A DNA stretch of 51,631 nt from contig JAHFLN010000003.1 of assembly GCA_023244835.1 (NCBI GenBank), forward strand, positions 1 through 51,631, in the 5' to 3' direction. The notes below the pieces were generated by a model. That model searched no databases, was not told the origin of the DNA, and saw only the letters and a program-made list of their open reading frames with translations. Position 1 is the first letter of the stretch; every line of letters starts with the position of its first letter. The stretch comes from Candidatus Harrisonbacteria bacterium. GTDB lineage: Bacteria > Patescibacteriota > Minisyncoccia > UBA6257 > UBA11618. The translations under genes and the position numbers were made by a program. This document shows positions 5,217-11,292 of the stretch, one piece after another.

Positions 5217-5298
5217 CGAATTCTCCTTGTCGAAAAAGTGCGGGAACTGTCTGAGAGATGGTATTATATCACGGTATTCTGATAAATGCAAGATAACT

Positions 5299-5565
5299 AT
5301 GGCATTCAAGGATGACGTGATGCGGGTTGTGCGGGAGATACCGCGCGGCTCCGCACGCACGTATAAGCAGGTCGCAGTCCTGGCAGGTAAGCCGAAGGCA
5401 TATCGCGCGGTTGGGACTATTTTGAAAACGAACTTCGATCCTGCGATACCGTGCCATCGCGTGATCCGTTCTGACGGGAAGCCGGGGGAGTACAACCGCG
5501 GCGCGAAAAAGAAAGTTGAATTATTGCGTGAGGAAGGGTACTATGGAAAGCGTAATCCGGAGTAG
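5299..5565 (+). CDS. MGMT-family (O6-alkylguanine alkyltransferase-like) small protein
   Basis: IPRG..TY..VA, RAVG and the IPCHRVI active-site motif. Confidence 0.9.
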   Translation: MAFKDDVMRVVREIPRGSARTYKQVAVLAGKPKAYRAVGTILKTNFDPAIPCHRVIRSDGKPGEYNRGAKKKVELLREEGYYGKRNPE

Positions 5566-5627
5566 TTCAATGGTAGAACGCCTCGCTGTTAACGAGGATG
5601 TCGTAGGTTCGATCCCTACCTCCGGAG
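5556..5627 (+). tRNA. tRNA-Asn(GTT), CCA not encoded
   Basis: Acceptor TCCGGAG/CTCCGGA, D-stem GTTC/GAAC, anticodon arm CCTCG-CTGTTAA-CGAGG, T-arm GTAGG-TTCGATC-CCTAC. Confidence 0.97.
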
Positions 5628-5698
5628 CAAGATATATAGTGAATAGCGGTGTGGGTAATTTATTGTGTAATCAAGCGTCGTTATGATAGTATATCCAT

Positions 5699-5923
5699 AT
5701 GAGTAAGTATCACTTTTCGATTATTATCGAGCAGGATTCCGATGGTTTTTTCGTTTCTTGCCCTGAATTACAGGGTTGTTATAGCCAAGGCGAGAGCTAT
5801 GAAGAGGCGCTGCTTAATATAAAAGACGCAATCAAGCTTCATTTGCAGGATCGCTTGGAAAATAAGGAGGGTGTTTCGATGGCACAGTCCGTGAGCTTGT
5901 CTACGGTAGAGGTTGCCGTATAA
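5699..5923 (+). CDS. hicB: HicB-family antitoxin (short form)
   Basis: F.V.CPELQGCYSQGESYEEAL.NI.DAI motif. Confidence 0.9.
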   Translation: MSKYHFSIIIEQDSDGFFVSCPELQGCYSQGESYEEALLNIKDAIKLHLQDRLENKEGVSMAQSVSLSTVEVAV

Positions 5924-5928
5924 GCGAT

Positions 5929-6153
5929 ATGCCCGAATTGCCGCGTATTACCGCTTCGGAAATAATAGCGGTTTTAGAGAAAGTCGGTTTTGTATGCACA
6001 AGGCAGAGCGGGAGCCATAAGATTTTCAAGAACGAAAAAGGATTGCGGGCTACGGTTCCATTTCATTCCGGCGCGATCCTGCACCCAAAGCTTTTAAAAA
6101 GCATCCTTCGCGAGGCGGATATGACCGTCGAGCGTTTAAAGGAATTACTGTAG
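5929..6153 (+). CDS. hicA: HicA-family toxin
   Basis: LEKVGF..RQSGSH and TVPFH motifs; 74 aa. Confidence 0.9.
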   Translation: MPELPRITASEIIAVLEKVGFVCTRQSGSHKIFKNEKGLRATVPFHSGAILHPKLLKSILREADMTVERLKELL

Positions 6154-6179
6154 TGGGTAAAGGGAGCGGGGCAGCGATT

Positions 6180-6278
6180 AATAAACTAAATCCGCTTCTG
6201 TGGGGATAAGTCAGGAATATAGATATACTGGGTATTTTTCTTAAAAAAAGTTCTAACATCCTCCACGATGCGGAGCCA
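6180..6278. repeat. att-like repeat copy 1
   Basis: 6211-6278 matches 6897-6964 at 61/68 positions and ends in CGGAGCCA; 6180-6192 AATAAACTAAATC also occurs in copy 3. Confidence 0.9.
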
Positions 6279-6349
6279 CGTTGGATGAAATTTTTTATCT
6301 AAAAAATCGTCTTATTTACAGGTATGGTGTGATATCCTATCCTTAATAT

Positions 6350-6565
6350 ATGGAAAAACAAAAAGTAAGCCCCGCTTTTCAGCAAGCTACGAAAGCTGTT
6401 GAAAAAATCAGGTCAGTATTACCAAAGCTCACCGAGTCTGAAAAAGCAACGTTGGAAATCTTGCTTGATGAAGAATCGCGCAATCACTTAGCGCAAAGCC
6501 TTAAGGACGCCAAGGAGGGTAATACCGTATCGTGGGAAGAAGCATTGAAAGAGCTTAAGAAGTAA
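6350..6565 (+). CDS. Putative antitoxin of a RelE/ParE-type pair
   Basis: 71 aa with a SL.DAKEG.TVSWEE tail; 1-nt overlap with the downstream toxin. Confidence 0.75.
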   Translation: MEKQKVSPAFQQATKAVEKIRSVLPKLTESEKATLEILLDEESRNHLAQSLKDAKEGNTVSWEEALKELKK

Positions 6566-6852
6566 TGCCGTATTTGATTCGGTTTACTACCTACGCTTTA
6601 AGATTGTTGAAAAAGACCCCGCCCAACTTACAACCATTACTAATCAAGGAGTTAGAAGTTATAAAACAAGCGCCTTATCAAGCGGCGCAATTAAGTGGAA
6701 AGTTTTCTTTTCTGCGCTCATGGCATGTATATCTGCGTGGCGTGCCCTATCGGATCGTGTATGAAGTGCAGGAAAATGGGAAAGAGATTCTCGTGCATGT
6801 GCTCGCTAAGCGTGCCGACGTCTATAAGTTACTTGAGCGTTTATATAAATAG
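6565..6852 (+). CDS. RelE/ParE-family toxin
   Basis: 95 aa, basic, with Y.IRFT..A...L, YRIVYEV and R.DVYK motifs. Confidence 0.85.
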   Translation: MPYLIRFTTYALRLLKKTPPNLQPLLIKELEVIKQAPYQAAQLSGKFSFLRSWHVYLRGVPYRIVYEVQENGKEILVHVLAKRADVYKLLERLYK

Positions 6853-6871
6853 AGAAGAGATACTCAATACG

Positions 6872-6964
6872 CTAAATCTACCCCTATAGAAACAGATCAG
6901 GAATATAGATATGCTCGGTATTTCCCCTGAAAAAAGTTTTAACATCCTCCACGATGCGGAGCCA
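6872..6964. repeat. att-like repeat copy 2
   Basis: Ungapped match to copy 1; last 25 nt identical, ending CGGAGCCA. Confidence 0.9.
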
Positions 6965-7062
6965 AATAGGACGAGTAGGTTTGATGAGGATTATTTTCGT
7001 AATCCTATCGTGAAGTCAGGATTTTTTAGAACAGCGTAGTTTTTTATGCGATTCATGTTCTT

Positions 7063-7092
7063 TTGACAAATGCAAATAAGTTGCATTAAGAT
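7063..7092 (+). promoter_or_regulatory. Promoter with overlapping Fur-family operator
   Basis: TTGACA-18-TAAGAT; the palindrome AATGCAA-ATAAG-TTGCATT (7069-7087) fills the spacer. Confidence 0.75.
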
Positions 7093-7099
7093 GGAGGGC

Positions 7100-7513
7100 A
7101 TGAGTTCCGATCAATCGAAGGAGGTTGCGCATACATATCGCGCTACCCAAGCTCGAACATCCATAATTGCCGTCTTAACTGAGGGGAACGCTCCGCTTTC
7201 TGTCGGGGAGATTCTTGATGTTTTAAAAAAGAGGAAGTCGTGTCCGAATAAGACAACGGTATACCGCCAGCTCGCGACTCTCATAAGGCGGGATATGGTC
7301 AAAGAAGTTCAATTTACCGAAGGCGCGAAAAGATATGAAATGGCCGATACGGGCCATCATCACCATGTCGTTTGTACGCAATGCAAAAGAGTCGAGGATG
7401 TGACGGTGGAGGGGGATTTAGCCGCAGAAGAGAAGATGATTGCGAAGACGAAAAAGTTCAAGGCGTTGAGGCATTCGCTCGAATTTTACGGATTATGTCC
7501 GAAGTGCGCTTGA
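7100..7513 (+). CDS. Fur-family metal-responsive repressor (Zur-like)
   Basis: TTVYRQL, HHHHVVCTQC and terminal CPKC; start placed after the -10 box. Confidence 0.92.
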   Translation: MSSDQSKEVAHTYRATQARTSIIAVLTEGNAPLSVGEILDVLKKRKSCPNKTTVYRQLATLIRRDMVKEVQFTEGAKRYEMADTGHHHHVVCTQCKRVEDVTVEGDLAAEEKMIAKTKKFKALRHSLEFYGLCPKCA

Positions 7514-7518
7514 AAGGT

Positions 7519-8289
7519 ATGGAAAATCCTATTAGGAAATTATACGGAAAGCTCACAGCGCTTAAAACTTATACGCCGTCGGAAGAGGTGAATGGGCTTT
7601 TTGTCGAATTGGTGCGGCTCGCATTAGGTCCAGACGATAAAAATACGCTTACTGCGGAGGAGATGGATAAGCTACAGGTCATTTGCGGGACAGCCGAATA
7701 CGAATTAGAGAAATATTGGGCTGAGAAGATAGTGCGAAGCGATGATCCGAAAGGGGTAATGGAGGATTTTCCTTATATGGAAAATTACCAAAAGCTTACG
7801 CGGATGGAATGGTTTTCCCTGCTCTCATGCGAAGCGCATGAGGAGCATGGGATATTTTTCGCCGGGGGCGGTCCGTTGCCCCTTACGGCGATCCTTCTAG
7901 CAAGGGATTATGGCCAGAAAGTAACTGTGGCGGATATCGATGCCGATGCGTGCGATTTTTCAATGCGCCTTGTAAAAGCGCTCGGTTTGGATAAAAAAAT
8001 AACCGTTATCAATGCCGATGCGGCTGAATACGAGGGGTACGGCGGCTTTAACGTCATTATCGTCGCTGCCTTAGCGGGATTGGAAAAGGGCATGAAAGGC
8101 AGGATATTAGGAAAGATAAAAAAGCACGCGCTTCGCGGAGCGCATGTGCTCGCTCGGAGCAGTTGGGGTATGAGGGAATTATTATATCGTCCTCTTGAGC
8201 CGGAGGCATGCGATGGTTTCAAGCGAATTATCGAAGTGAGGCCGCGGAACGATGTCGTAAACTCAATCGTGATTTTCAAGAATTCCTGA
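7519..8289 (+). CDS. Nicotianamine synthase-family protein
   Basis: AEYELE.YWA, FPYMENY..L, GGGPLPLT, AALAG, R.LLY and VVNSIVI motifs typical of NAS. Confidence 0.85.
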   Translation: MENPIRKLYGKLTALKTYTPSEEVNGLFVELVRLALGPDDKNTLTAEEMDKLQVICGTAEYELEKYWAEKIVRSDDPKGVMEDFPYMENYQKLTRMEWFSLLSCEAHEEHGIFFAGGGPLPLTAILLARDYGQKVTVADIDADACDFSMRLVKALGLDKKITVINADAAEYEGYGGFNVIIVAALAGLEKGMKGRILGKIKKHALRGAHVLARSSWGMRELLYRPLEPEACDGFKRIIEVRPRNDVVNSIVIFKNS

Positions 8290-8291
8290 TC

Positions 8292-9221
8292 ATGGATAAG
8301 ATTCCCGTATACCTTATACACGGTTCGCTGGGTAGCGGGAAAACGACCGTTTTGAACAGGCTTATCGGTTCGGGCGTTTTTAACAATGCCGTTGTGGTTG
8401 AAAACGAGTATGCCGACTATAACTTCGATAAGGATATGATCGTGGGAAAAACGAAAGTATTCGGCGTTTCAGGGGGCTGCATATGTTGTTCTTCGGGACA
8501 AGAGTTATTCGATGCTCTTCATGAAATTGGGGGCGCGAAGGGCAACGGACCCCTTTTCATAGAGACGACCGGAGTTGCGAGCTCTGTCAGACTGGTGAGG
8601 CAGCTGATGCTGTCAGGCGAGTTCGAGGATAAATATGAACTAGTTCGTAATATCCTGGTTTTAGATATTCTGGAAGACGACCTTAGGGTTATCATGAAGG
8701 AGAAGGCTCTCGATGTCGTTATGGCGGACCTAGTCATACTTAATAAGGCTGATTTGGCATCGGCGGACGTAGTCGAAGAATTCAAGCATTTCATCGGGAC
8801 CGTTTCCGATGCGTTGGTTTTCGTGACGGAATATGGCGCGGTTGACGCGGATATGGTTCGGTCGGTTTCGAAATCGCGGGCGGACAGGGTCTTGCTCGAT
8901 AACATGGGTTGTTTCTCCGGTGACGGCGCGGACCACTCGAAAGATATTCTGTACCAAGTGATATATCCAACCGTCAAAATTGCCGCGGAAGAGCTGATAT
9001 CGGAAATCAAGTCATCATGCGCGCGTTCGGGTATGGAAATAACCAGGATCAAGGGCGTATGCACGGATCCTGCCGGGAAGAGATTCTCGATACAGGCGAC
9101 AAAAAGCAATCATGCGATACTGCCGGTTACGGGCGGGCATGATGATGTGCTGGTCATGATCGGCAAGAACGTTACGAAGGAAAATATCAGGCCGTTGATG
9201 CTCCGACTATGCAAGAACTGA
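8292..9221 (+). CDS. COG0523/CobW-family G3E GTPase metallochaperone
   Basis: GSLGSGKTT, ENE, GCICC, ETTGVA and NKAD motifs. Confidence 0.9.
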   Translation: MDKIPVYLIHGSLGSGKTTVLNRLIGSGVFNNAVVVENEYADYNFDKDMIVGKTKVFGVSGGCICCSSGQELFDALHEIGGAKGNGPLFIETTGVASSVRLVRQLMLSGEFEDKYELVRNILVLDILEDDLRVIMKEKALDVVMADLVILNKADLASADVVEEFKHFIGTVSDALVFVTEYGAVDADMVRSVSKSRADRVLLDNMGCFSGDGADHSKDILYQVIYPTVKIAAEELISEIKSSCARSGMEITRIKGVCTDPAGKRFSIQATKSNHAILPVTGGHDDVLVMIGKNVTKENIRPLMLRLCKN

Positions 9222-9808
9222 AAGATATAATCGCATTTTCAGGGCAGGTGGCAGATCGGCTTATCATGCAATATGGGGAATATGTTTTTTTAAGCGCGAA
9301 AATCAAGGGGCTTGAGGATGAAAAATTCAGAATGATTTTAGCGATAGCGAAAGAAAGGAGTATTGGCGTTCAGGATGCGCTGAAGCAAGAGGCGGATGGC
9401 ATGCTGAAGCGGATGAATGAGATCATCGCGCTGTATAGGATTGATTTGGAACGCGTTTCGGACGAGATGACGTTTCCAAACCCGCTTATATGGATGACGT
9501 ACAAGTACAAGGCGTATAAGGGAACGAGTAGCGAGATCGCCACCATGGGAGATTTCAGGAGGCACTGCGCGCCTGCGGGATATATATGCACCGCCCGTTT
9601 CGGCTTCATGCGGGATTATATGGAGGATAAGAACCGGATAAATATAAATGATAAGGCGAGGTATCCGGATGAAATAAAGCTTCCCGATTTTTATTTGAGC
9701 AAGGAAGCAGTTGGCTTATTAGCGGATACGGATTTCATGTCCGAATGGAAGCGGAGGGAATATCTCATAACGGAAAATAAGATCAATAAATGGAATGCGT
9801 CCCACTAG
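9209..9808 (+). CDS. Hypothetical protein
   Basis: 199-aa ORF overlapping both neighbours in the operon. Confidence 0.75.
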   Translation: MQELKDIIAFSGQVADRLIMQYGEYVFLSAKIKGLEDEKFRMILAIAKERSIGVQDALKQEADGMLKRMNEIIALYRIDLERVSDEMTFPNPLIWMTYKYKAYKGTSSEIATMGDFRRHCAPAGYICTARFGFMRDYMEDKNRININDKARYPDEIKLPDFYLSKEAVGLLADTDFMSEWKRREYLITENKINKWNASH

Positions 9809-10937
9809 GATAGTCTTCTATGGGGTGATTGCATTGGTCGCGGCCTTAGGGGTATTTCTCATATCCGGCCGCGCGGATTCATTTTTTATACGCGCATTGC
9901 CGTCTGATTCCACTTCATTTTCATTTGCGCGGATAACGGACATAAGCGAAGAAGTACACCTCGAATCTCCTGCGCCATATTACATTCAGACGATACAAGC
10001 CGATTTTCTCCATAATGAGAATGGCGGCGGGAAAACGATTACCCATTATCGCGGCTTACTTGGTGCGGACGCAGGGCAGAAAATGCGCGTCGGCGAAACG
10101 GTCGTCCTCGTGAAAAATACGAACTTCGAGGGCGGGGATGCGTATTTCATATCCGACCGTTATCATTTACCCGCGTTACTCGGTCTCGGACTGCTCTTTT
10201 TCGTCGCAGTCGTCGCACTCGGCGGATTGCGGGGCCTTACTTCCTTTCTGGGGCTTATCTCAAGTATTGCCGTTTTACTACTGTATATTGTCCCCGCGAT
10301 TCTCGCAGGGCAAAACGCCCTATTCGTCAGTTTTATAGGCGCGAGCTTGATAGCCGTCTTTTCCCTATATCTCGGGCACGGGTTCAACGCACGAACGACA
10401 ATAGCGCTCATCGCCACGCTCATAACGCTCGGTATTGCGGTGGGTATGGCGGTCGCGTCGGTTTATTTCACAGAACTTATGGGTATTGCGTCAGAAGAAG
10501 GCTTTTTATTGAATCTAAAGGTTGCGACGCTCAGCCTGCGCGGGCTTCTACTTGCGGGTATCGTTATTGGCATGATGGGTGTTTTGGACGATGTGACAAC
10601 GGGACAGGCCGCAATCGTGCATGAATTACATGAAGCAAATCCGAGTTTGGATTTTCGCGAGTTATATCGCCGTGCCACGGCGGTCGGCAGGGAGCATATC
10701 GCGTCGCTTGTAAATACGCTCGTGCTTGCGTATGCGGGCGCATCGCTTCCCATATTTCTCTATCTTATTATACAGAGCCAGCGTGCGCCGTGGTGGATAG
10801 TTTTGAATCAAGAGCTTATCGCTGAGGAAATTGTACGTACGCTCGTGGGCAGCCTCGCGCTCGTGCTCGCCGTGCCGATTACGACCTCGCTTGCGGCGTG
10901 GTATTACGGAGTGATGGTAAAAATAGGTAATCAATAA
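9795..10937 (+). CDS. YibE/F-family membrane protein
   Basis: Multi-TM; G.LDDVT..Q, GREHI.S.VNTL.LAYAG and EEIVRTLVGS motifs. Confidence 0.9.
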   Translation: MRPTRIVFYGVIALVAALGVFLISGRADSFFIRALPSDSTSFSFARITDISEEVHLESPAPYYIQTIQADFLHNENGGGKTITHYRGLLGADAGQKMRVGETVVLVKNTNFEGGDAYFISDRYHLPALLGLGLLFFVAVVALGGLRGLTSFLGLISSIAVLLLYIVPAILAGQNALFVSFIGASLIAVFSLYLGHGFNARTTIALIATLITLGIAVGMAVASVYFTELMGIASEEGFLLNLKVATLSLRGLLLAGIVIGMMGVLDDVTTGQAAIVHELHEANPSLDFRELYRRATAVGREHIASLVNTLVLAYAGASLPIFLYLIIQSQRAPWWIVLNQELIAEEIVRTLVGSLALVLAVPITTSLAAWYYGVMVKIGNQ

Positions 10938-10984
10938 ACTAAATCAGTCCGTGTGCGGATAGATCGGGAATATAGATATGCTCG
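10933..10984. repeat. att-like repeat copy 3 (truncated)
   Basis: AATAAACTAAATC...GATCGGGAATATAGATATGCTCG; stops just before the csoR -35 box. Confidence 0.8.
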
Positions 10985-10988
10985 TAGC

Positions 10989-11019
10989 TTGACGAAATAT
11001 ACCCCTAGGGGGTATTAAT
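10989..11019 (+). promoter_or_regulatory. csoR promoter with CsoR/RcnR-type operator
   Basis: TTGACG -35; ATACCCC-TAG-GGGGTAT palindrome with C/G tracts at 10999-11015. Confidence 0.85.
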
Positions 11020-11025
11020 AAGAAT

Positions 11026-11292
11026 ATGGTCGATATATCGAAAAATAAAATTGCGCGGCGTCTGAAGATTGTCGAGGGGCAAGTGCGCGGGTTACAGGAA
11101 ATGGTCGATAAAGGTTCGTACTGCATCGATGTTATCACGCAAACATCGGCAGTGAAGCGGGCCTTGTCTGGCATCGAAGATATGATAATGGAGAATCATC
11201 TGGGTACATGCGTTATACGTCAGATCAAGAAGGGTGAAGAGGACAAGGCGCGGCAGGAGATATTGAAGGTGTATCGCCTGAAGCGTAAATAG
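11026..11292 (+). CDS. csoR: CsoR-family copper-sensing repressor
   Basis: RLKIVEGQVRGL..M, YC.DV and H...C metal-binding motif. Confidence 0.92.
   Translation: MVDISKNKIARRLKIVEGQVRGLQEMVDKGSYCIDVITQTSAVKRALSGIEDMIMENHLGTCVIRQIKKGEEDKARQEILKVYRLKRK

Follow-up and report, generated by a model that had tools for sequence, protein, structure and literature searches.

How did three short blocks of accessory genes come to stand one behind the other at a tRNA gene, each closed by a copy of the same repeat and none of them carrying a recombinase? This question is raised by a locus in a stretch of 51,631 nucleotides (the window) from Candidatus Harrisonbacteria bacterium, a member of the Patescibacteriota (GenBank assembly GCA_023244835.1, contig JAHFLN010000003.1, positions 1 to 51,631). 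An initial annotation of the window had described the locus as an array of cassettes lacking an integrase, delimited by attachment-like repeats that encode an orphan, recombinase-like C-terminal peptide. We found that the repeats, read on the minus strand, consist of the last ~28 codons of a large serine recombinase (LSR) gene with its stop codon and the hairpin that follows, and that positions 5629 to ~10984 form a composite island of three cassettes at tRNA-Asn without any recombinase body. In our preferred reading, which we consider likely, the repeats are the P' halves of a tRNA-targeting LSR family that splits its own gene upon integration, and the island was laid down by serial LSR recombination.

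The only tRNA gene of the window, tRNA-Asn(GTT), is located at 5556-5628 on the plus strand (ARAGORN; 72 bits for the Rfam tRNA model). Its 3' end reads ...CCGGAGC up to position 5628 and is followed by AA. It contains the attB-side core GGAGC (5624-5628), with the T-arm as the B' half-site, and the reverse complement of this 3' end matches the first bases of the repeats. The GC content was 0.57-0.59 ahead of the tRNA and 0.42-0.44 directly behind it. An MGMT-like open reading frame (ORF) of 112 aa at 5227-5565 overlaps, as called, the first 10 nt of the tRNA gene.

A repeat search returned a family of three copies (6169-6231, 6855-6917 and 10922-10984) and a 109-nt pair with 78% identity (6180-6288 and 6866-6974). 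The 19-nt core pattern, with up to 3 mismatches allowed, gave exactly three matches where 0.02 were expected, a number reached in 0 of 100 shuffles. The 24-nt right end, identical in copies 1 and 2 (6255-6278 and 6941-6964), did not occur a third time (0 expected). Scattering of the repeat over the genome had been named beforehand as an observation that would speak against a role at tRNA-Asn; using blastn at E <0.01 the repeat was confined to these three sites in the 658-kb, 30-contig genome. The earlier description of the copies was largely reproduced. Copies 1 and 2 were 89.7% identical over 68 nt (61/68, blastn) and their similarity breaks off directly after CGGAGCCA, which is the tRNA 3' end, as had been proposed. 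Copy 3 was found as well, with its start near 10922 and not at 10933; it was 75% identical to copy 2 over 63 nt.

Copy 1 (6180-6278, minus strand) lies in a 41-codon frame, scored 60.0 with a hidden Markov model (HMM) and was aligned by tblastn to LSR residues 546-570. Its P' half-site spans 6250-6276 with the core GGAGC at 6272-6276; the peptide codons run through 6189-6281 and the stop codon at 6186-6188 is followed by a small hairpin and a T-rich tail. Copy 2 (6866-6964, minus strand) scored 53.7 in a 43-codon frame, with its P' half-site at 6936-6962 and the core GGAGC at 6958-6962. A single change within its GTTAGAAC motif turns R into K. Of copy 3 (10922-10984, minus strand) only the distal part is present (...HIYIPDL, stop, hairpin), giving a partial HMM match to positions 15-25 with a score of 20.2; both the core and the GTTAGAAC motif are missing. 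Translation confirmed the minus-strand peptides, in stop-to-stop frames of 41, 43 and 21 codons, and that no long ORF leads into any of them.

The bare peptides had no Pfam match, and a word-index protein search with the 41-aa frame returned 2 candidates, none of which was scored. When 401 genomes from the same order were searched in six frames, 118 of them contained the peptide at E <= 1 and 49 at E <= 1e-3. Almost all matches were located in tiny open frames; one lay in a frame of 586 codons. In genome G020 (contig C6) a 576-aa ORF ends in the peptide and contains the Pfam domains Resolvase (PF00239, 1.8e-20), Recombinase (PF07508, 2.3e-6) and Zn_ribbon_recom (PF13408, 8e-11). When the C-terminal region of this LSR was compared with a library of 5.8 billion proteins, four more full-length LSRs were recovered, of which P0002 and P0003 end in the same tail. 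Full-length LSRs with the tail in frame were 520-576 aa long, and the orphan copies all align from LSR residues ~545-549 on, which gives them a sharp common start. The suggested link of the peptide to a recombinase therefore holds, as it is the C-terminus of full-length LSRs.

Homologues of the LSR were present in 175 of the 401 genomes. The nearest solved structures to the G020 LSR were the SPbeta and A118 integrases, and its nearest named relatives in NCBIfam were CcrB, XisF and CcrC, all far below the family cut-offs. We also considered a recombinase of the CcrB type, as in the staphylococcal cassette chromosome mec (SCCmec). CcrB was the best NCBIfam match (1.4e-25), with 90 bits against an equivalog cut-off of 900, and the G020 protein is not a CcrB.

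The position of the LSR genes relative to tRNAs was followed in 30 fetched LSR loci, in which tRNAs were predicted by ARAGORN. In 20 of these the last bases of the LSR ORF fall within the 3' end of a tRNA gene that converges with it (Asn, Gln, His, Ser, Trp, Tyr, Gly, Leu or Asp). One further locus reads through a tRNA-His and one abuts an intron-bearing tRNA-Asn. As ARAGORN misses tRNAs that carry insertions, the adjacency of LSR and tRNA genes is under-counted. The closest LSR homologues stop at query residue ~548-558, and at the junctions the codons for (M/W/L)-L-R correspond, in reverse complement, to the 3' end of the tRNA. In 7 loci the missing tail was found 7-14.5 kb upstream of the tRNA-abutting body and on its strand, the order expected of an element that has been linearised within its own recombinase gene. 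In two loci (L039 and L187) the body is followed directly by the tail of a neighbouring element, which restores the frame. One element family was seen in both forms, split in G376, with the hairpin and tail at one end and the body against tRNA-Asn at the other, and joined in a related element on contig L163. We concluded that the attP core is a 6-10 nt reverse-complement copy of the tRNA 3' end, situated ~28 codons before the LSR stop codon. Integration at this core cuts the LSR gene; the body stays at the tRNA and reads antisense into it, and the tail with stop codon and terminator comes to lie at the far end of the element.

Two side observations concern the tRNAs at these loci. Insertions of 210-350 nt in the anticodon loop of tRNA-Asn were found in L088 (2280-2497, G003:C16), L078 (G115:C8) and L081 (16150-16560, G376:C6). 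The one in G003 matched a group I intron model with 33.9 bits (E 6e-7), below the gathering score, and the tRNA-Asn of the window has no such insertion. In L080 (13197-13344 and 804-875, G181:C3) an 11.7-kb LSR element at tRNA-His abuts with its far end a pair of tRNA-Phe and tRNA-Arg genes. As another tRNA-Phe gene is found immediately beyond its near end, the element may carry or duplicate tRNA genes.

The core was found to co-vary with the acceptor end of the targeted tRNA, a distinct core being seen for Asn, Trp, His and each of two Ser types. For five tRNA types, 6-10 nt at the start of the repeat are also found in the reverse-complemented 3' end of the tRNA. Across a selection of 38 full-length copies, sequence conservation sets in at the core and amounts to ~0.13 bit upstream of it. 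Within the repeat the conservation was 1.20, 1.41 and 0.86 bit at codon positions 1, 2 and 3, which is a coding periodicity, and GTTAGAAC is conserved also at third positions. The same profile was obtained for 73 Asn-type metagenomic copies, among which, past the 27-nt half-site, the tails form subfamilies, including short ones. One tail subfamily has a second GAYGTTAGAACC motif followed by TGTTT ~80 nt past the core (L119, L133, L152, L102, L110, L157, L160 and others), and the short-tail variants resemble deletions between the two GAYGTTAGAACC copies.

A short motif, GAAC, recurs on both sides of the reaction. Counted from tRNA position 74 it occupies positions 19-22 in the T-loop, and in the P' arm positions 24-27, in 5 of 5 pairs. 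In the P' arm GAAC lies within GTTAGAAC, the codons for V-R-T. These codons of GTTAGAAC may imitate the T-loop motif of the tRNA five bases further from the core. In serine integrases the zinc-ribbon motif is placed 5 bp nearer to the centre in attB than in attP, as described by Rutherford et al. (PMC3783163), and the 5-bp offset of GAAC fits the attP/attB half-site geometry of these enzymes.

To the left of the core a few classes of arm recur, namely a terminator-like hairpin, a motif of ~35 nt, and the end of an LSR body. The hairpin (class a), its stem conserved and its loop variable, was seen in L119 (10076, 10773 and 12795), L133, L116 (1302), L092, L120, L141 and L160. The ~35-nt motif (class b) was seen in L043 (4556, 4653 and 7377), L150, L095, L116 (4886), L130, L143, L140 and L191. 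Both classes sit directly left of the core in otherwise unrelated contigs, and in L191 class b comes after a 16-nt duplicate of the tRNA-Asn 3' end.

Comparison of the LSR genes with each other revealed that bodies and tails exchange at the core. P0004 is 97% identical to the G020 LSR (525/541) up to ...MLR and continues from there into tRNA antisense, and P0001 has a G020-type body with a third continuation past the same point. Conversely, P0002 has a body with 27% identity and nearly the same 27-residue tail, and the body of P0003 is likewise unrelated. The same is seen in whole contigs. Among 133 contigs, 7 of 63 internal homology breakpoints fell at most 12 nt from a core, where ~0.5% would be expected. 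From the core on, contigs L163 and L166 share 98.3% identity over 4 kb; to its left they are unrelated, one having an LSR body there and the other a hairpin. L119 and L152 are 99.6% identical on one side of the core and much more divergent on the other. Variation that does not break at the core had been named as contradicting the proposed role of the repeat; related contigs were found to break at the core. The peptide, the frame ends that converge with tRNAs, the co-variation of the core and the mosaics of body and tail all bear out the earlier proposal, in which attP was placed within the 3' end of a recombinase gene, probably an LSR gene, that targets tRNAs.

How common LSR-less cassettes are was assessed in 117 loci from species-representative genomes, which contained 128 cores. 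One of the 128 cores lay in a frame of >= 300 codons, and an LSR body was present in 2 of the 117 loci. A convergent tRNA followed 36 cores, 26 of them at <1.7 kb, a spacing too short for an LSR gene. LSR-less cassettes beside tRNAs are thus common in Patescibacteria. Between successive cores on the same strand we counted 31 cassettes of 378-2970 nt, in which 49 of 54 ORFs (>= 50 aa) are oriented against the LSR sense, i.e. in the direction of the tRNA. Pfam searches with 56 cassette ORFs gave NYN (3), HicA (2) and ParE (2), and single matches to LD-carboxypeptidase, AAA_15, methyltransferase, NUDIX, GDSL lipase, MscS and NERD. Stretches with the half-site motif numbered at least 117 in genomes and at least 118 in metagenomes; among the 80 record titles listed, 55 named Patescibacteria lineages, 13 only "bacterium" and 12 other labels.

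Six full elements were found to carry DNA methylases, type III restriction subunits, Toprim proteins, DUF5659 and HTH_17, and capsid or conjugation domains were not detected among their 51 ORFs. A viral origin was considered and rejected: besides the lack of such domains, the Asn-type half-site pattern, searched as one pattern at one threshold, had 0 matches in IMG/VR contigs.

In the window itself, each cassette closes with a P' copy on the side distal to the tRNA, and all nine cargo genes are co-oriented with the tRNA on the plus strand. Cassette 1 (5629-6278) consists of a 70-nt left arm, hicB (5699-5923; Pfam HicB_lk_antitox, 5.6e-12), hicA (5929-6153; HicA_toxin, 2.5e-18) and repeat copy 1. 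Cassette 2 (6279-6964) contains a 71-aa ORF without Pfam match in the position of an antitoxin (6350-6565), a ParE/RelE-like ORF (6565-6852; ParE-like_toxin 1.2e-4 and ParE_toxin 6.3e-4, both below cut-off) and repeat copy 2. The cargo of these two cassettes is accordingly of the type II toxin-antitoxin kind, with HicA and HicB above the Pfam cut-off, the ParE-like protein below it and its partner without a match. Between cores they measure 650 and 686 nt and hold toxin-antitoxin ORFs only. Bounded by att-type sites and devoid of recombination genes, they resemble cis-mobilisable elements (CIMEs).

Cassette 3 (6965-10984) is a metal-homeostasis module that ends in the truncated repeat copy 3. 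It comprises fur (7070-7513; Pfam FUR, 9e-24), a nicotianamine-synthase-like gene (~7522-8289; NAS, 2.7e-49), a cobW-type GTPase gene (~8289-9221; cobW, 4e-29), an ORF of 199 aa without Pfam assignment (9209-9808) and a gene for a yibE/F membrane protein (9795-10937; YibE_F, 7e-66). The cassette resembles a module for zinc or metal starvation, here in a genome of 0.66 Mb.

Five relatives, four of the same genus and one of the same family, had no counterpart of 5629-10971, which covers cassettes 1 and 2 and positions 6965-10971 of cassette 3. Same-genus homology restarts at window position 10972, from where contig C1 of G001 is 75% identical onward. This right edge of the island (10972-11292) comprises the csoR promoter and csoR (11026-11292, plus strand; Trns_repr_metal, 8e-24), and copA is kept in G001, G002, G004 and G005. 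Ahead of csoR (10985-11025) a perfect-looking palindrome, ATACCCCTAGGGGGTAT, is kept in G001 and was also seen in unrelated metagenome contigs; it is probably the CsoR operator. Copy 3, deprived of its core and of the GTTAGAAC motif, adjoins the csoR promoter directly, from which we conclude that the far part of the array was lost by deletion.

In G003, of the same genus, the syntenic tRNA-Asn is directly followed by an LSR gene that ends in ...WLRR, and the contig ends inside this gene. In G005, of the same family, a 203-aa 3' fragment of an LSR lies at tRNA-Asn (L087 1555-2166, G005:C1), the remnant of a decayed element. An empty attB was not recovered in the relatives, as the G003 site holds the LSR and its contig ends there, and the G001 contig ends within the tRNA. 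The hicBA genes, the ParE pair and the metal module of the window had no match in 207 other loci, and we therefore have no direct case of the window's cassettes in another context.

Several observations weigh against our reading of the repeats as P' halves and of the island as the product of serial recombination. The arm left of the core was not conserved across either the 38 or the 73 copies. RTCC at -9 to -6 is all that the two inner arms of the window share with LSR body ends, and a complete two-armed attP is therefore not demonstrable for the cassettes; this remark on RTCC derives from a script that anchors the copies at the T-loop motif, which mis-anchored L046, L057, L067, L069 and L070 and missed 12. 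Several metagenomic copies are broken or reduced to the first ~12 codons. The 5-bp offset of GAAC is a pattern in the sequence and not a binding result. No LSR body was found in the window's own genome, the assembly of which is 97% complete, with mobile DNA possibly left unassembled. Canonical serine integrases do not recombine attP with attL or attR, according to the same study (PMC3783163). The recombination itself was not observed. A search for sequencing runs gave 4 runs of one groundwater study, 2 of which may be the source, and the read data that we examined were assembled and fragmented Logan contigs. They contained no joints, the loose ends at the tRNA came from tRNA-Asn contexts of other organisms, and they are uninformative either way. 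Finally, ordinary decay also contributes to what is seen, as in the truncation of copy 3 and in the G005 fragment.

Decay could be taken further, and it is the alternative that survives best. Three complete LSR elements would have integrated serially at tRNA-Asn and then lost the recombinase and most of their cargo by ordinary deletions, so that the cassettes would be dead remains that were never mobile units and could not be mobilised. The missing LSR in the window's genome and the variable left arms agree with this, as do the deletion that joined copy 3 to the csoR promoter and the 5'-truncated LSR fragment at tRNA-Asn in G005. Loci L099 and L016 still keep ~40 nt of LSR body ahead of the core, in a 37-codon frame. 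However, upstream of copies 1 and 2 no resemblance to an LSR body extends beyond ~10 nt, and random deletions would not repeatedly end exactly at the core; LSR-type left arms were found in ~3-4 of the 73 metagenomic copies. Near-identical contigs differ precisely at the core, and the cassette size of 0.4-3 kb and the polarity of 49/54 ORFs recur across many genomes. We regard decay as the sole origin of the island as unlikely.

Far less probable is the explanation that the repeats are small functional genes, for a peptide of ~30 aa, or a structured or cis-regulatory RNA, unrelated to recombination. In its favour are the frame kept with coding-like periodicity in the 38 selected copies and the small hairpin and T-rich run found past the stop codon in every copy. 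Against this, neither a start codon nor a long frame leads in, the same sequence is the in-frame end of LSRs of 520-576 aa, and descent of the repeats from LSR genes, with their re-joining to such genes, accounts for the periodicity; an Rfam family or a shared fold was not found. That the repeats are attC sites of an integrase-less chromosomal integron (CALIN), used as folded single strands by a tyrosine integron integrase, is the least credible of all, even though short co-oriented cassettes, each with a ~100-nt repeat and toxin-antitoxin cargo, are like sedentary integron arrays and copy 1 can form a long imperfect hairpin, because the fold is not common to the copies (z of -0.60, +0.05 and -0.97 on the plus and -1.61, +1.25 and -2.63 on the minus strand, copy 2 being no more stable than shuffled sequence on either), the repeat encodes the end of serine recombinases, its core changes in step with the 3' ends of tRNAs, the Rfam match was to the tRNA only, and Pfam detected no tyrosine recombinase domain in the 10 ORFs of 5699-11289, no dedicated genome-wide search for IntI having been made.

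For the preferred reading, serial LSR-mediated recombination at the tRNA and core would have laid down the array. Under the canonical site rules tandem arrays should not be built, and serial insertion therefore needs either relaxed rules or accretion with partial excision. The route may have been accretion of elements followed by partial excision, or an enzyme working in trans may have integrated units that had no recombinase. The core of copy 3, with anything on its far side, would then have been deleted later. The simplest scheme would require attP x attB and attL x attR reactions only. Elements would accrete in tandem at the tRNA and be excised jointly as composites, and a later excision via an inner site would leave the outer cassette against the tRNA. 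Alternatively, the enzyme might read mainly the right arms, so that an "x|tRNA" junction would stay a target and an "x|P'" junction a donor, and the system would therefore work like an integron. LSR-less units may arise along either of these lines and may be mobilised in trans, and the breakpoints at the core between contigs are only indirect evidence of mobilisation by, or together with, a recombinase-bearing neighbour. The stacking of non-autonomous cassettes by an enzyme in trans, as proposed in the initial annotation, would be consistent with these results: LSR-less cassettes at tRNAs are common and occur here in a genome without an LSR; on the other hand an excision product was not seen and a route by decay exists.

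A wider idea is that Patescibacteria run a tRNA-anchored, integron-like exchange of cassettes with self-splitting LSRs, in which the tRNA and P' arms alone are read specifically and in which the C-terminus of the recombinase switches with the integration state, as a built-in switch of activity or stability. We find this possible and rather doubtful. If the integron-like reading were true, visiting elements would insert, shed and shuttle single-gene cassettes between genomes.

To our knowledge, Patescibacteria have tiny genomes in which few mobile elements have been described. In these bacteria gene flow seems to pass widely through the LSR family, and the locus presents one way in which tiny-genome bacteria of groundwater gather accessory genes. 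Full elements bring restriction-modification and other defence genes; the cassettes bring genes for toxin-antitoxin pairs, NYN proteins and metal homeostasis. The change of three codons in step with the acceptor end, together with the fixed T-loop-like motif, could help to explain or re-programme the choice of target by LSRs. For annotation, orphan frames of 25-40 codons beside tRNAs mark the borders of islands.

Among known systems, the ssrA islands of Dehalococcoides and the SCCmec composites are closer to the island than integrons, for which the likeness drawn in the initial annotation holds as an analogy only. In Dehalococcoides a CcrB-like serine recombinase of ~540 aa (DsiB) is encoded on the reverse strand at the 3' end of a stable RNA, the islands occur in tandem, and about half of them lack the integration module and were read by the authors as cis-mobilisable (PMC3146451). 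As far as that report describes them, the two systems share the recombinase beside a stable-RNA 3' end, the tandem islands, the recombinase-less units and the accessory cargo. They differ in that the Dehalococcoides islands target the transfer-messenger RNA (tmRNA) and have a repeat that is a 20-bp copy of the target 3' end, whereas here true tRNAs of at least seven isoacceptor types are targeted. The repeat described here is ~100 nt long and holds the last ~28 codons of the LSR itself, with the core inside the ORF. The cassettes, with 0.4-4 kb, are also much smaller than the Dehalococcoides islands.

In SCCmec, CcrAB or CcrC insert the element at the 3' end of a conserved gene, and composites contain recombinase-less pseudo-SCC units between direct repeats. 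LSRs at the 3' end of a gene and recombinase-less units in composite arrays are thus common to both. The target of SCCmec is rlmH, a protein gene, and that of the present family is a tRNA gene; the SCCmec repeat restores the end of the host gene, whereas here the repeat is the end of the recombinase. Integrons likewise have ordered, short, co-oriented cassettes with one site each, a fixed anchor and toxin-antitoxin cargo. Unlike them, the present system has no IntI among the ORFs tested and no folded attC, belongs to another enzyme class, follows a double-strand att logic and is anchored at a tRNA.

The partition of the recombinase gene recalls the SSV1-type integrases of archaea, in which attP lies inside int, the target is a tRNA, and the gene is partitioned by integration and re-joined upon excision. 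Those enzymes are tyrosine recombinases of archaeal viruses and plasmids and are split far from the 3' end, whereas the domains found here are those of a bacterial serine recombinase, from which only the last ~28 codons are detached; the principle of partition alone is in common. A gene is also cut in the integration-dependent immunity of mycobacteriophages, where attP lies inside the repressor gene and integration removes its 3' end, which makes the C-terminus of the protein depend on the state of integration (PMC9262239). In those phages the enzyme is a tyrosine integrase, the gene that it cuts is that of the repressor, and the tail that is lost is a degradation tag; here the recombinase gene itself is cut. 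According to the same review, serine-integrase mycobacteriophages do not use tRNA genes, with which the use of tRNAs by the serine recombinases studied here contrasts. These enzymes also carry the crossover inside their own ORF.

Tycheposons of Prochlorococcus integrate repeatedly at tRNA sites and thereby push older elements outward, and 27 of 937 carry a large serine recombinase (10.1101/2020.12.28.424599). From the description in that preprint, they resemble the present system in their tRNA-side islands, in the degraded elements and partial tRNAs left behind and in the adaptive cargo. They differ in mostly using tyrosine recombinases and in having partial tRNAs as flanking repeats; a recombinase split by its own att site is not part of that description. 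In the literature that we searched on serine recombinases with an internal attP or with tRNA targets in candidate phyla we did not find the present arrangement described. Tandem islands, recombinase-less units and the partition of a gene by an internal attP all have precedents, and the self-splitting, tRNA-targeting LSR arrangement is a variant of these.

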